A stretch of 64,000 bases of DNA from Trypanosoma brucei (GCA_000002445.1 CP000068.1:448001-512000); one strand, 5' to 3'. Counted from the first letter of the stretch, positions 564 to 7,737 are shown. A program made the numbers and translations. The notes: generated by a model from the letters alone, not told the origin.

Positions 564-1868
564 TCATTCCTTCCTGTAACATGGAGAGGTTGCCCCACCC
601 TTTTTGTCAGGTGAAGAAACTGCCTCACCTTTCTCATCAATTACATCTTCAGCATTACCTCTTCTTCGTCTCACAAACACAAGCACCACAGCTGTAATAA
701 TCGCGAGGATAGCGACAGGTATGAGAACAGCCATAAGTATTACCTTGCTTTCCTTGATCTTACTGCTTAGTGCTGATCTATCACTAGTCTCCAGGAGGTC
801 ACCGAAGTCCGCATCAGCTCCAACGACCTCTGGTTCGGTTCCACTTGTTGTTCCTGTTCCTGTTCCTGTTGATATTGTTGTTGATGTTCCTCCTGTTGTT
901 TCTGTTGCCCCACCCTCTCCAGTTGAAGTGCCAACCCCTCGGTGTGTGGTCTCGGGAGCGGCACCTCCAGGGTTAGTGAATTTTGCACCCTTTCTGCTTG
1001 CTTCCTTGGCTTCGACCAAAACTTCGCTGAGTGGCTTGCCTGCACTCAGTCCGCTGTGGACAGCACTTGCACCACTATAAAAGCCAGATACATCATCATG
1101 AGTCTTTTTACCTTGTTCGTGTGACTCTTCGAGTTCCTTAAGCTTGTTCGTGGCTGAGTCATAGTCGGCCTTCCAGTTGTTGGTGACTGGCTGTTGGCCT
1201 TTTGGTTTCTTATTTTCCCATTCTTCTAAGGCTTGTTTCATCGTCCCTGAGGATATATCGTCATAAAGTGTTGTTTTGTGACCCGTTGCTTCGCAGTCAA
1301 TGGTATTCCTTCCCGTCCCTGAATAATGGGTTTTGAACGTAATACCTTCACAGCTAGTGGTCTGTGCATTATCTCCCTTCTTCCCGCAGTACCACTCTAA
1401 AAGCTGGTGAAGTCCACTGGAATTTTGGCCGTCATAGTCAAGTTCCCATCCTCGCGCCTTTTTTGCCGCTTCTGTCGCAGCCTGGCAGCGTTTTTTCGCT
1501 TCCTCGCCATACATTTTCGCTGTTGGCAGCTTATTCTTTAATTTATCCTTCGCCTTTTCGTATATGTCCTTCACTTTTTTAGTATCAGCATCCGAAAGCT
1601 TCGAATAGCCATCGTTACTGTGTGCACGGTTTTCCAGTGTTTGTAACCAGTGTTCCAACCTGTCCAGCCAGAGTTGTATATCATCCGCAAAGCCTTGAGT
1701 TTTTTCTCGGATTTTGTCTGCCCTTCTTTTTTCTATAGTTTTAGCAAGATCCGTCAGCTTACATAGCGCCAATGCACCTTCCTTGTTTAGCTTTGTCTCC
1801 CCATTTGCTTCCACCGCTCGTAGCAGTAAACCTGCAAAGGTAACCGCAACCAAGGAACACCTTATCAT
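564..1868 (-). CDS. ISG65: Invariant surface glycoprotein ISG65, copy 1 (434 aa; signal peptide, ectodomain, Gly/Thr-rich linker, one TM helix, Lys-containing cytoplasmic tail)
   Basis: ATG-to-stop ORF checked (cat at 1866-1868, tca at 564-566). N-terminal hydrophobic signal MIRCSLVAVTFAGLLL. C-terminal TM ILMAVLIPVAILAIITAVVLVFV followed by RRRRGNAEDVIDEKGEAVSSPDKKGG tail. Size and architecture match the T. brucei ISG65 family. Two paralogues follow in tandem. Confidence 0.8.
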   Translation of the reverse strand: MIRCSLVAVTFAGLLLRAVEANGETKLNKEGALALCKLTDLAKTIEKRRADKIREKTQGFADDIQLWLDRLEHWLQTLENRAHSNDGYSKLSDADTKKVKDIYEKAKDKLKNKLPTAKMYGEEAKKRCQAATEAAKKARGWELDYDGQNSSGLHQLLEWYCGKKGDNAQTTSCEGITFKTHYSGTGRNTIDCEATGHKTTLYDDISSGTMKQALEEWENKKPKGQQPVTNNWKADYDSATNKLKELEESHEQGKKTHDDVSGFYSGASAVHSGLSAGKPLSEVLVEAKEASRKGAKFTNPGGAAPETTHRGVGTSTGEGGATETTGGTSTTISTGTGTGTTSGTEPEVVGADADFGDLLETSDRSALSSKIKESKVILMAVLIPVAILAIITAVVLVFVRRRRGNAEDVIDEKGEAVSSPDKKGGATSPCYRKE

Positions 1869-2306
1869 ATTTCCCTTGTATCAAACTTCGCTTCTTTGTA
1901 TATTTCGCAAGCCAGTTCACTCTCCCACATAAATACAATTATGCACAAAAAGAAGCAATACTCATAGAATCATCAGCAAACATTATTGTAACTTTAGCAA
2001 TACAACCGCAGTTATCATCTTTACTTCCACTTCATAATCATATTATCTTACAAAGGCAATCACATCATTCCAACAGTAACAACTTTCCACTCTCAGATAT
2101 CCTGTTGATATCCTTGTCTCCTAGTTTTGCTGAAGGATAAAATAAATATTCTGCCACACCAACTTATAGTTGCTTATGGTTTCTCTTATTTCCAATTCCA
2201 TGGGAGGAGGATACACATATGCATATATCATGTATGAAAGAAGTATTTCCTTTTGATGTGATGATTACTGGGTATGAACAAACAAATAGTAACATTCATA
2301 AATTAG

Positions 2307-2939
2307 CTACCTAACAACTTGGTCATTATGAGTAGAATGGGAGGTGTCATTGTCACCGCTACGTTTCGAATAGTATTCTGTTTCACTGATAACTTCCACC
2401 CTGTAGTTGAATAATTTCAGCCTCTCCTGTGTAACCACACTATCAGAAATCACAATACTCCTCAGCACCCTACAATATCTCAAAAATCTCAAATCCTCCA
2501 GTTTCTCACAACACTTCACATTCAGCTTTTCCAACCTCGTGTCTTCATACCTGTGTATTCCCGTTATCTCTCGCAGGTTTCGACACCCGGATAAATTCAA
2601 TTCCCGCAATTCCTTCACATGCTTTAGTCCTCTTACCTTCTGTAAGCCGATACATTCACGAATCTCAATAACCTCCATCTTTACACATCCACCCACATAT
2701 ACATCTTCCAACGCTTTACACTTTTCAATGATCAGTTTGAGAAGATTATCTGCTTCACGCACATCAACATTACGCAAGAGCTCACACTCATCAATTCGTA
2801 TTTCCCTTATACTCTCATGATATCTGAACATACTAAAACTTTTAATACTGCCACAATTACTCACAAGAAAGCTCTTCAAGGCTTTACATTGCCCCAAGCC
2901 CTTTAACCTGCCTATACCCTGACAGTGCGTGGGTTTCAC
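2307..2939 (-). pseudogene. 5'-truncated fragment of the leucine-rich-repeat protein gene (C-terminal 210 codons only), ending at the duplication junction
   Basis: The 210 aa are about 99% identical to residues 93-302 of the intact LRR protein at 8190..9098. The reported first codon is GTG (complement of cac at 2937-2939), created by the junction, and there is no ATG. The N-terminal 92 codons are absent. Confidence 0.7.
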
Positions 2940-3341
2940 ATTGCCATATACCCAGCCTTTTATCGACCATGAGTTTATTAGATATTGTTAACTGACGCCA
3001 TTGCTTCATGAGCCGTGTCAGGTCCCTGCAGGTGTCGCTAAAAATGCATACGAAATATGCCCATATACCTCATTACTCCCTTACCGGAATATTTTTTTAT
3101 TACACCATAAATAGGGGGAAATATATTCATTACTGAATGGCCAGACCACACCTCCACATCTTTAAATTATTTAGTCAGAAAATTGCACATCTTACAAACA
3201 CTGTTTTATATGGGGGGGAGGGGTGTGCTACACATGCGCCTTTACTTCACGCCAGCTTGGGCTGTAGATATGCACACACAACCCATTTTCACATCTCCCG
3301 TAATATTTATTACAGAAAAAATAGTTTATTATTTTTATTTT

Positions 3342-5878: not shown

Positions 5879-6280
5879 ATTGCCATATACCCAGCCTTTT
5901 ATCGACCATGAGTTTATTAGATATTGTTAACTGACGCCATTGCTTCATGAGCCGTGTCAGGTCCCTGCAGGTGTCGCTAAAAATGCATACGAAATATGCC
6001 CATATACCTCATTACTCCCTTACCGGAATATTTTTTTATTACACCATAAATAGGGGGAAATATATTCATTACTGAATGGCCAGACCACACCTCCACATCT
6101 TTAAATTATTTAGTCAGAAAATTGCACATCTTACAAACACTGTTTTATATGGGGGGGAGGGGTGTGCTACACATGCGCCTTTACTTCACGCCAGCTTGGG
6201 CTGTAGATATGCACATACAACCCATTTTCACATCTCCCGTAATATTTATTACAGAAAAAATAGTTTATTATTTTTATTTT

Positions 6281-6313
6281 AAGGGGAAGGGGGACGGAGG
6301 GAGGGAGAAAAAT
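6281..6313 (-). promoter_or_regulatory. Polypyrimidine tract (minus strand) in the 3' flank of ISG65 copy 3
   Basis: Same purine-rich plus-strand run as 412-444. Confidence 0.3.
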
Positions 6314-6432
6314 ATCATATATAATGGAAGGGAAACCTCTCCCGCAACAGGTGAGAAATTTTTAAATTGTAACCTCTCCAGAGGTTAGCCCTTCCTAAAC
6401 TAAGCAAAATAAGCAAGAGATGATAATATCAT

Positions 6433-7737
6433 TCATTCCTTCCTGTAACATGGAGAGGTTGCCCCACCCTTTTTGTCAGGTGAAGAAACTGCCTCACCTT
6501 TCTCATCAATTACATCTTCAGCATTACCTCTTCTTCGTCTCACAAACACAAGCACCACGGCTGTAATAATCGCGAGGATAGCGACAGGTATGAGAACGGC
6601 CATAAGTATTACCTTGCTTTCCTTGATCTTACTGCTCAGTGCTGATCTATCACTAGTCTCCAGGAGGTCACCGAAGTCCGCATCAGCTCCAACGACCTCT
6701 GGTTCGGTTCCACTTGTTGTTCCTGTTCCTGTTCCTGTTGATATTGTTGTTGATGTTCCTCCTGTTGTTTCTGTTGCCCCACTCTCTCCAGTTGAAGTGC
6801 CAATCCCTCGCTGTGTGGTTTCGGGAGCGGCACCTCCAGGGTTAGTGAATTTTGCACCCTTTCTGCTTGCTTCCTTGGCTTCGACCAAAACTTCGCTGAG
6901 TGGCTTGCCTGCACTCAGCCCACTATGGACAGCGTACGCTGCATTGTAAAAGCCAGATACATCATCATGAGTCTTTTTACCTTGTTCGTGTGACTCTTCT
7001 AGTTCTTCCATTTTTTTCACAGCTGAGTCGTAGTCGCTTTTCCATTTCTCGTAGTCAGCACTTATTTTTTTCGGTTTCTTCTTCTCCCAATCCTCTAAGG
7101 CTTGTTTCATCGTCCCTGCGGATACATGTAAGTAAAAGAGAGCCGTATAGCCCGTTGCTTCGCAATCAATGGTATTCCTTCCCGTCCCTGAATAATGGGT
7201 TTTGAACGTAATACCTTCACAGCTAGTGCTCTGTGCATTTTCTCCCCTCTTCCCGCAGTACCACTCTAAAACTAGATGAAGTCCACTGGAATTTTGACCC
7301 TCATCATCAAGTCCCCATCCTCGCGCCCTCTTTGCTGCCTCGGTCACAGCCTGGCAGTGTTTTTTTGCTTCATCGCCCCATTTTTTAGCTTCTGGCAGCT
7401 TCTCCTTTAATTTATCCTTTGCCTTTTCGTATATGTCCTTCACTTTTTTAGTATCAGCATCCGAAAGCTTCGAATAGCCATCGTTACTGTGTGCAGGGTC
7501 TTGTAGCGTCTGTAACCAACTGTCCAAGCTGTCCAACCAGAGCTTCAATCCATGTGCAAAGCCTTCAGTATCCCGTCCAATCTTATCTGCTTTTTTATCT
7601 CCGACAGTTTTAGCAAGATCCGTCAGCTTACATAGCGCCAACGCACCATCTCTGTTCAACTTTGCATTCGAGTTCGCTACCACCACTCGTAGCAGTAAAC
7701 CTGCAAAGGTAACCGCAACCAAGGAATACCTTATCAT
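6433..7737 (-). CDS. ISG65: Invariant surface glycoprotein ISG65, copy 3 (434 aa)
   Basis: Paralogue of the other two copies. The 3' half is conserved. The central ectodomain carries blocks shared alternately with copy 1 (SCEGITFKTHYSGTGRNTIDCEATG) and copy 2 (FYNAAYA.HSGL). ATG confirmed at 7735-7737. Confidence 0.8.
   Translation of the reverse strand: MIRYSLVAVTFAGLLLRVVVANSNAKLNRDGALALCKLTDLAKTVGDKKADKIGRDTEGFAHGLKLWLDSLDSWLQTLQDPAHSNDGYSKLSDADTKKVKDIYEKAKDKLKEKLPEAKKWGDEAKKHCQAVTEAAKRARGWGLDDEGQNSSGLHLVLEWYCGKRGENAQSTSCEGITFKTHYSGTGRNTIDCEATGYTALFYLHVSAGTMKQALEDWEKKKPKKISADYEKWKSDYDSAVKKMEELEESHEQGKKTHDDVSGFYNAAYAVHSGLSAGKPLSEVLVEAKEASRKGAKFTNPGGAAPETTQRGIGTSTGESGATETTGGTSTTISTGTGTGTTSGTEPEVVGADADFGDLLETSDRSALSSKIKESKVILMAVLIPVAILAIITAVVLVFVRRRRGNAEDVIDEKGEAVSSPDKKGGATSPCYRKE

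Follow-up and report, generated by a model that had tools for sequence, protein, structure and literature searches.

Three neighboring genes for surface proteins lie on the minus strand at positions 564 to 7,737 of a 64,000-nucleotide stretch of Trypanosoma brucei brucei TREU927 chromosome 5 (GCA_000002445.1 CP000068.1:448001-512000; hereafter the window, with positions counted from its first nucleotide). Do they differ from one another as simple duplicates would, or are they patchworks of one another's sequence, and what process holds some of their parts alike and others apart? A preliminary description of this DNA, made from the sequence itself, had named the genes ISG65 and had held that copy 3 is built of blocks shared alternately with copies 1 and 2, through short-tract gene conversion. 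We find that the copies are mosaics, with statistical significance, and that their blocks are shared across subspecies of the parasite. Recurrent, non-reciprocal recombination within the array very probably homogenizes the near-identical parts of the repeat, while only short patches pass inside a divergent island that encodes the ectodomain.

The three coding sequences (CDSs) were found by calling open reading frames (ORFs), and their products of 434, 435 and 434 amino acids all match the Pfam family PF11727 (ISG65-75; E=5e-51, 1e-50 and 2e-47; 162-174 bits versus a cut-off of 25.1).

564..1868, minus strand: copy 1 (c1), CDS of 434 amino acids, PF11727 match at E=5e-51; NCBI XP_844813; last gene of the array; probably Tb927.5.1390, from the order of accessions
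3494..4801, minus strand: copy 2 (c2), CDS of 435 amino acids, PF11727 match; NCBI XP_844815; probably Tb927.5.1410, the "64 kDa ISG" (ISG64 naming in PMC3584999)
6433..7737, minus strand: copy 3 (c3), CDS of 434 amino acids, PF11727 match; NCBI XP_844817; adjoins a full-length LRRP gene; probably Tb927.5.1430

The product of copy 3 is 100% identical to a TREU927 protein (P0001). ISG64, the 64-kDa ISG, is the literature name of Tb927.5.1390, Tb927.5.1410 and Tb927.5.1430 (PMC3584999; PMC2771046), and all three genes are up-regulated and transcribed in bloodstream forms (PMC2771046). The genes of the array belong to this chromosome-5 ISG64 subfamily of the ISG65/75 family and are not of the chromosome-2 ISG65 type, to which their ectodomain identity is about 42% at the amino-acid level (copy 3 versus TbgISG65). 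The name ISG65 therefore does not apply to them, and the characterized C3 receptor is the chromosome-2 type.

Mosaic structure of the three copies

Among only three sequences, any variable site sets a single copy apart from the other two, which leaves no informative sites for PHI, and tests of pattern clustering were used instead. The site patterns along the trio fall into 79 runs, compared to 153.2±7.2 after shuffling (z=-10.4, p<5e-5). A maximum-excursion test of the 3SEQ type returned p=5e-5 with c1 as the child sequence, 1.5e-4 with c3 and 4.8e-3 with c2, and MaxChi gave p=0.0005 to 0.0035, with peaks near CDS nucleotides (nt) 239-252, 447-505, 573, 680 and 757. The clustering survives when the sites are restricted to third positions only (z=-7.5), to one call per codon (z=-8.4), to sites at least 6 nt apart (z=-4.2) or to purely synonymous codons (z=-3.8, p=1e-4). 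It is thus the product neither of multi-nucleotide mutation nor of convergence at the amino-acid level. The longest run joins c1 and c3 at 26 consecutive informative sites (nt 505-567).

Eight further full-length copies, collected from T. b. gambiense DAL972 and T. equiperdum, bring the total to 11. A PHI-type test of their ectodomains gave 0.313, versus 0.393±0.006 (z=-13, p=2e-4); 39% of the informative site pairs are incompatible, and the incompatibility grows with the distance between sites. When painted by a copying model, with the switch and mismatch parameters chosen here, c1 and c3 resolve into 16-18 segments. These have a median length of about 50 nt, span about 7-140 nt and are each nearest to a different copy. 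The runs, 3SEQ-type and MaxChi tests and the painting all support the mosaic that had been described.

Blocks, switch points and a probable conversion tract

The individual blocks that matter for the argument are the following, the two blocks without a donor having been identified by painting against 13 collected sequences.

6931..6987, minus strand: switch point in copy 3; 6931-6945 equals copy 2 (3992-4006) and 6960-6987 equals copy 1 (1091-1118)
7171..7233, minus strand: longest run of copy 3 equal to copy 1 (c1 1302-1364), with 26 consecutive informative sites; part of the head loop, encoding QSTSCEGITFKTHYSGTGRNT
7035..7072, minus strand: block of copy 3 without donor, PKKISADYEKWKSD
1053..1078, minus strand: block of copy 1 without donor, YSGASAVHS (nt 794-819); contains Ser268 (codon 1065-1067)
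4069..4096, minus strand: minimal conversion tract in copy 2, 28 nt; maximal extent 4046-4123 (about 78 nt); equal to copy 1 at 1139-1166

The switch from copy 2 to copy 1 that the preliminary description placed at 6930-6990 of copy 3 is exact: AGCGTACGCTGCATT is found only at 3992 (copy 2) and 6931 (copy 3), and CATCATCATGAGTCTTTTTACCTTGTTC only at 1091 (copy 1) and 6960 (copy 3). The peptides quoted there are also shared between copies as claimed. The block that it called private to copy 3 stands in part. Within the window the block is indeed confined to this copy, and no donor for its stretch at about nt 666-706 (PKKISADYEKW) is present in the 13 collected sequences, but its second half, SAVKKMEELEE, occurs on a copy-2-type backbone in the T. 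b. gambiense copies gA1, gB1p and gC1.

Copy 2 carries a discrete patch. The painting assigns it to DAL972 gA1 over nt 1-705 (8 mismatches), to c1 over nt 706-734 (none) and to gC1 from there to the end (one). The ectodomain of c2 differs from those of gA1 and gC1 at 8 sites over nt 1-705, and 11 of the 19 ectodomain differences are crowded within nt 706-733, where c2 equals c1 and the two gambiense copies carry the c3-type motif AVKKMEELEE. A patch of 28-78 nt with these properties appears, on sequence comparison, to be the signature of non-crossover gene conversion. This tract and the painted segments of about 50 nt support short-tract gene conversion as the best mechanism, in keeping with the earlier proposal, and we infer that the events were gene conversions rather than closely spaced crossovers.

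An island of divergence in a homogenized repeat

The copies are head-to-tail direct repeats, all on the minus strand, with a unit of 2.93 kb (period 2930-2944 nt) and alignable intergenic sequence. Each unit consists of an ISG64-type gene and a 5'-truncated LRRP fragment. Among the three CDSs there are 246 variable alignment columns, and all but 7 of them precede CDS nt 823. Divergence covers the first 820 nt or so of the CDS (codons 1 to about 273 of 434) and some 120 nt upstream of the ATG; the remaining 2 kb or so of each unit, including the C-terminal third together with the 3' flank and LRRP fragments, is 96-100% identical in alignments of whole units. The patchwork thus occupies the N-terminal two-thirds of the protein and the rest is homogenized, as the preliminary description had it. 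The limits below come from a site-pattern map and an identity profile.

1052..1990, minus strand: divergence island of unit 1, with about 120 nt of 5' flank
3982..4801, minus strand: divergence island inside the CDS of copy 2
6921..7737, minus strand: divergence island inside the CDS of copy 3
564..1051, minus strand: homogenized C-terminal part of copy 1, 98.0-99.4% identity; equivalents at 3494-3981 (c2) and 6433-6920 (c3)

In protein terms, the signal peptide, the head loops and helices H1, H2 and H4 fall in the island. The homogenized C-terminal part covers the end of H4, H5, a disordered linker rich in Thr, Gly and Ser, the transmembrane (TM) helix and the cytoplasmic tail. The rates of synonymous (dS) and non-synonymous (dN) substitution, estimated separately for the two parts by the Nei-Gojobori method among the three copies, are far apart. 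The ectodomain (codons 1-271) has dS of 0.41-0.55, dN of 0.16-0.19 and dN/dS of 0.33-0.39, and the C-terminal part has dS of 0.02-0.06 and dN of 0-0.008. The noncoding flanks match the C-terminal coding part in uniformity, and that part has about 50% nucleotide identity to the chromosome-2 genes, versus 98-99.4% within TREU927. The tenfold contrast at synonymous sites, the uniform noncoding flanks and the low identity to the chromosome-2 C-terminus together identify the C-terminal uniformity as concerted evolution, not constraint. The divergence profile along the unit is nearly equal in the TREU927 and DAL972 arrays, with the same limits, peaks and troughs.

The seven variable C-terminal sites (alignment 921-1182; c3 at about 6556-6817) are all private to c3 within TREU927, and over nt 824-958 the c3 variants are the same as in DAL972 gA1. 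The C-terminal part thus has two haplotypes (TTHRGVG...GEGG and TTQRGIG...GESG), which have also been reassorted relative to the type of ectodomain. All three TREU927 copies share one C-terminal type. In DAL972 this type is found only on c2-type ectodomains, the relatives of c1 and c3 carrying another. It has spread in the TREU927 array.

The LRRP components of the repeat, and the gene from which the fragments derive, were located as ORFs.

2307..2939, minus strand: LRRP fragment of repeat unit 1, 5'-truncated, with leucine-rich-repeat (LRR) Pfam matches
5246..5878, minus strand: LRRP fragment of repeat unit 2, 5'-truncated
8190..9098, minus strand: full-length LRRP gene at the upstream edge of the array, source of the fragments, with LRR Pfam matches

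As each unit carries a 5'-truncated LRRP, the original duplication broke inside LRRP. The fragments are 210-codon ORFs that start at GTG. Of their 633 nt, 5 distinguish one fragment from the other, and 13-16 separate them from the full gene.

Arrays of other Trypanozoon lineages

The syntenic array of T. b. gambiense DAL972 holds three placed copies, gA1, gA2 and gA3 (on L003). Unplaced pieces appended to the chromosome-5 record carry another five to six: L001 has gB1p, gB2, gB3 and gB4, and L004 has gC1 and gC2p. The unplaced ISG64 copies (L001 1433-11293; L004 10001-13517) number at least 5 and are separated by N gaps; gC2p is a frameshifted fragment, and the ectodomain of gC1 is 100% identical to that of the placed gA1, the C-terminal parts differing at 15 sites. 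The unplaced copies may represent a second haplotype or a larger, collapsed array. The T. equiperdum locus in synteny has a single ISG64 gene, e1 (L002 10001-11296). Its ectodomain is 99.3% identical to that of DAL972 gA2, a type absent from TREU927.

The copy number is accordingly one in T. equiperdum, three in TREU927, and three placed plus several unplaced in DAL972, and the single e1 gene of gA2 type means that the presence of types, as well as their number, varies between Trypanozoon lineages. The ectodomain types also follow one another in a different order: in TREU927 the c2 type is in the middle and the full LRRP gene adjoins c3 (6433-7737), and in DAL972 it is the c2 type (gA1, L003 7060-8358) that adjoins the full LRRP gene. 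These differences in number and order require unequal exchange besides short-tract conversion.

Neither DAL972 nor T. equiperdum has a full-length counterpart of copy 1 or copy 3, which are instead tiled by segments of different copies that are about 90-100% identical to them; copy 2 differs from its DAL972 counterpart by one tract. Blocks are thus shared across subspecies, an outcome of the comparison with other arrays that the preliminary description had recommended. Between c2 and gA1 the identity is 97.7% over nt 1-813 and 98.9% outside the conversion tract, near the genome-wide coding identity of 99.2% reported in PMC2854126. Paralogous ectodomain types differ by 15-25%, and the blocks of the ectodomain predate the split of the subspecies by far. 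With an ectodomain dS of about 0.5, the array reassorts old blocks and does not create new variants.

The chromosome-2 ISG65 array

The seven ISG65 copies of the DAL972 chromosome-2 array (L005 and L006) were reached with a TbgISG65 query rebuilt from a PDB alignment, searches with copy 3 having returned only chromosome-5 proteins. These copies are variable up to about nt 880, with 90-nt identity down to 0.38, and are 0.94-0.98 identical in the C-terminal part. The comparison with this array, also recommended at the outset, therefore revealed a similar divergence profile. It revealed no exchange of sequence: against the seven copies we found no shared tract, the best identity over 60 nt being 0.75 and the longest exact match 16 nt. 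Ectopic exchange with chromosome 2 was rejected on these two values, in keeping with Jackson 2007, where ectopic conversion was reported to be rare (PMC1855330). Across the C-terminal, TM and tail region the two arrays have about 50% nucleotide identity, so that each array has been homogenized to its own version.

Fold of the ectodomain and the question of complement binding

The AlphaFold2 model of copy 3 has helices at residues 29-79, 93-139 and 227-275 and H5 at 280-292. These are followed by a linker at about 295-362 that is disordered, its residues mostly having pLDDT below 50, and by a helix at 364-404 that contains the TM segment. The best Foldseek matches of the model are the ISG65 structures 8OVB, 7PI6 and 7ZGJ (TM-score 0.83-0.89, root-mean-square deviation 2.8-4.1 Å). 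Copy 3 is thus predicted to have the ISG65 fold, with an ectodomain that is a curved three-helix bundle, a disordered linker, one TM helix and a short cytoplasmic tail.

We mapped the 18 residues of ISG65 that contact C3d (Macleod 2022, Supplementary Table 5) onto the 11 ISG64 copies, the ISG65 numbering being anchored on seven residues that PMC10140031 names. W81 alone is retained by all 11 copies; R77, N290 and Y293 are present in some, and 14 of the 18 are replaced in all 11. Trp211 of TbgISG65 corresponds to Ile or Val. By this mapping, the surface with which ISG65 binds C3d (TED) is for the most part not conserved in ISG64. The suggestion in the preliminary description that ectodomain variants could differ in complement evasion is thus not directly transferable to these genes, given the 14 replaced contacts and given that PMC11065263, which characterizes TbgISG64, names no ISG64 ligand and speaks only of "potential ligands".

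The positions equivalent to the contacts are not enriched in variability (10 of 18, compared to 134 of 253 in the ectodomain). Certain hot-spot residues do vary among copies. The alanine mutant of Tyr293 abolishes C3d binding in TbgISG65 (PMC10140031), and the equivalent residue is Ser268 in c1, Tyr in c2 (3995-3997) and c3 (6934-6936), and His in gA2, gA3, gB2 and e1. It lies in the block that reads FYNAAYA or FYSGASA, and its His and Tyr versions occur on otherwise similar backbones (gA3 versus gB3, 89% identical). The Arg77 equivalent is Arg or Ser. Such variation would be a lead for experiments and not evidence of function. It is conceivable, though we consider it quite improbable, that the shuffled cassettes carry determinants of a ligand-binding face, and that the array would then be a combinatorial panel of receptors with differing ligand or host specificity, made by block exchange and kept by selection against homogenization. 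Were this so, the ligands of the panel could be, for example, the C3 of different mammals or an unknown ISG64 ligand.

Mechanism and alternative explanations

In the mechanism that we favor, recurrent recombination inside the array, conversion and unequal exchange would keep the near-identical parts of the units identical by concerted evolution. Outside the gene these would be the LRRP fragment, the 3' flank and most of the 5' flank; inside it, the sequence for the last part of helix 4, for helix 5 and for the linker, TM helix and tail. The segment of about 940 nt that encodes the signal peptide and ectodomain would persist as an island of old, deeply diverged types, inside which only short tracts, typically of about 50 nt (range about 7-140 nt), would be transferred. 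Each copy would in this way be a patchwork of blocks that other T. brucei subspecies also have in their arrays, differently combined. The diversity of the ectodomain may, moreover, be maintained by selection for varied receptors or antigens.

We found no sign of pervasive positive selection, ectodomain dN/dS being 0.33-0.39. No 30-codon Nei-Gojobori window among the three copies exceeds 1, although these estimates are confounded by recombination and come without a formal test; among the 11 copies the only ratio above 1 falls in codons 1-15 of the signal peptide, where synonymous diversity (piS) is 0.016 and the counts are tiny. The earlier statement that conversion diversifies the exposed part of the protein is at the level of suggestion, with the dN/dS values and the lack of any window above 1 on the other side; the dS of about 0.5 points to reassortment of old blocks and not to the making of new variants. 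The same values weigh against our account, since they provide no positive evidence of selected diversity, and several other points do so as well. The donorless blocks of c3 (nt 666-706) and c1 (nt 794-819) could be mutational or could come from unsampled copies. Each strain is represented by a single assembly, and exact-protein look-ups of copies 1 and 3 gave no independent TREU927 assembly. The four-gamete count (at least 55 intervals in 813 nt among the 11 copies) is inflated by recurrent mutation at a dS of about 0.5, and the number of painted segments depends on the switch and mismatch parameters.

The role of selection is where a different explanation has some room. The island could be a neutral by-product of one conversion machinery at work along the whole unit, persisting only because its own divergence of 20-30% blocks recombination via mismatch-repair rejection, with the mosaic arising from short-tract leakage of no selective value. 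The absence of a dN/dS signal speaks for it, as does the finding that synonymous sites are as mosaic as non-synonymous ones, that the tracts are short and usually stop in regions of high divergence, and that variability at the C3d-contact equivalents is no greater than the background. In our view it is somewhat less likely than not, as a neutral island between actively homogenized flanks would be expected to erode, yet the same limits, peaks and troughs recur in two subspecies and in the independent chromosome-2 array; the ectodomain types have been retained across subspecies, as the comparison of c2 and gA1 illustrates, and bloodstream forms express each of the three genes (PMC2771046). A different question is whether the blocks were exchanged mainly by meiotic crossing-over between misaligned or allelic arrays in a sexual T. 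brucei population rather than by intrachromosomal mitotic conversion in cis. Copy number and type order differ between lineages and do call for unequal exchange, and the blocks of c1 and c3 are best matched by copies of another subspecies. We nevertheless regard crossing-over as an unlikely main source, since the 28-78-nt patch in c2, with its backbone restored on both sides, would need two crossovers within 80 nt, and segments with a median of about 50 nt are far shorter than the spacing of crossovers.

An artefact of assembly, by which repeats were joined chimerically or collapsed and two TREU927 haplotypes possibly mixed, deserves mention because mis-joins are easily made in some 2 kb of near-identical sequence per unit, because unplaced array pieces and N gaps occur in the DAL972 record, and because the look-ups yielded no independent TREU927 contig. 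Mis-joins inside identical sequence, however, would swap whole ectodomains and would not produce switches of 10-140 nt within a unique island that is 20-30% diverged. Two independent assemblies, from other subspecies, contain these blocks as well, and c2 is reproduced over 705 nt by both gA1 and gC1. Jackson 2007 reports the retrieval of reads spanning most putative breakpoints (PMC1855330), in arrays that do not demonstrably include the ISG64 array. We thus hold an artefact to be very improbable. Point mutation in the absence of recombination, with rates or selection specific to lineage or region, has next to no chance of being correct. All variable sites in a set of three sequences are singletons, and a single tree formally fits each of them. 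The clustering of these sites (p<5e-5) nonetheless persists when only synonymous codons, or only sites spaced by 6 nt or more, are counted, the 11 copies give a PHI z of -13 with 39% incompatible pairs and an incompatibility that rises with distance, and a discrete tract is identical to a paralogue. Mutation without recombination was rejected on the clustering, the PHI-type test and the conversion tract; the differences are not the uniform scatter of point mutations that the preliminary description had set against its own proposal.

Neighboring features of the window

Beyond the array, a GRESAG4-type adenylate cyclase gene lies at 11384-15133. Opposite the Thr/Gly/Ser-rich linker of each copy there is an antisense ORF on the plus strand (604-1080, 3534-3989 and 6473-6949; 151-158 codons); these ORFs are most likely by-products of biased composition. 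A (CA)54 microsatellite occupies 31297-31404. The coding strand switches between about 50400 and 57200, long ORFs being on the minus strand up to 50401 and on the plus strand from 57212, and the switch adjoins an AT-rich stretch at 54-60 kb with a GC content of 0.37-0.38; this is probably a divergent strand-switch region. Scans of the whole window for tRNA genes and tandem repeats revealed nothing relevant to the array.

Implications and comparison with known systems

ISG64 and ISG65 are abundant, immunogenic and supposedly "invariant" surface proteins of the bloodstream stage, which are in use as antigens for serodiagnosis and have come under consideration for vaccines. The ectodomain of ISG64 does vary, both between copies and between subspecies. 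This matters for the choice of antigen, as a construct made from one copy or strain will miss epitopes of the other copies, and our findings also warn against carrying the C3-related function of ISG65 over to ISG64. The array is a quantified example of a divergence island inside a concertedly evolving repeat, a principle already published for T. brucei tandem arrays.

Jackson 2007 described 76 partial conversion events, with chimaeric copies in 21 of 47 T. brucei arrays, homogenized untranslated regions (UTRs) and rare ectopic exchange, and gave BARP and Tb927.3.4070 as examples of surface proteins in which motifs spread by conversion (PMC1855330). Jackson et al. 2010 found mosaics in 31 of 35 arrays, and used the chromosome-2 ISG65 array (Tb927.2.3270-3320) as a worked example of "subspecies-specific sequence mosaics" (Fig. 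3 and Table 2 of that paper), with at least 5 breakpoints by GARD and a PHI p<0.001 (PMC2854126). The chromosome-5 array is not among the entries in the accessible part of that Table 2, and a literature search with the chromosome-5 gene identifiers returned only papers on expression and proteomics. The present locus is therefore a further member of a published kind of mosaic array, itself undescribed or at least unemphasized.

The nearest relative is the chromosome-2 ISG65 array, with which the ISG64 array shares the PF11727 family, the fold, the tandem arrangement, the homogenized flanks and the combination of a variable N-terminus with a uniform C-terminus. Recombination tests are significant and recombinant copies are subspecies-specific at both loci. 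The ISG64 array differs in its location on chromosome 5, in an ectodomain identity of only about 42%, in having just three copies that are interleaved with LRRP fragments, and in the C3d-contact residues, most of which are not conserved in it. The tandem arrays surveyed by Jackson 2007 resemble it in their conversion between linked duplicates, their rare ectopic exchange and the homogenization of UTR and intergenic sequence above that of the CDS; a diversifying side effect of conversion was proposed there for fast-diverging surface proteins. We see no difference in mechanism, and the ISG64 array is one more array of that sort.

The mosaic genes of the variant surface glycoproteins (VSGs) show a likeness of a different order, in that short-tract, homology-guided patching affects the exposed N-terminal domain and the C-terminal part is kept. 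VSG mosaics arise somatically during infection, from silent donors, and are expressed from a telomeric, monoallelically expressed site. The ISG64 array, in contrast, is internal to its chromosome, flanked by GRESAG4 and other internal genes, and its three genes are all transcribed in bloodstream forms (PMC2771046), a setting that speaks against somatic mosaic formation of the VSG kind. Its mosaics are germline differences between strains.

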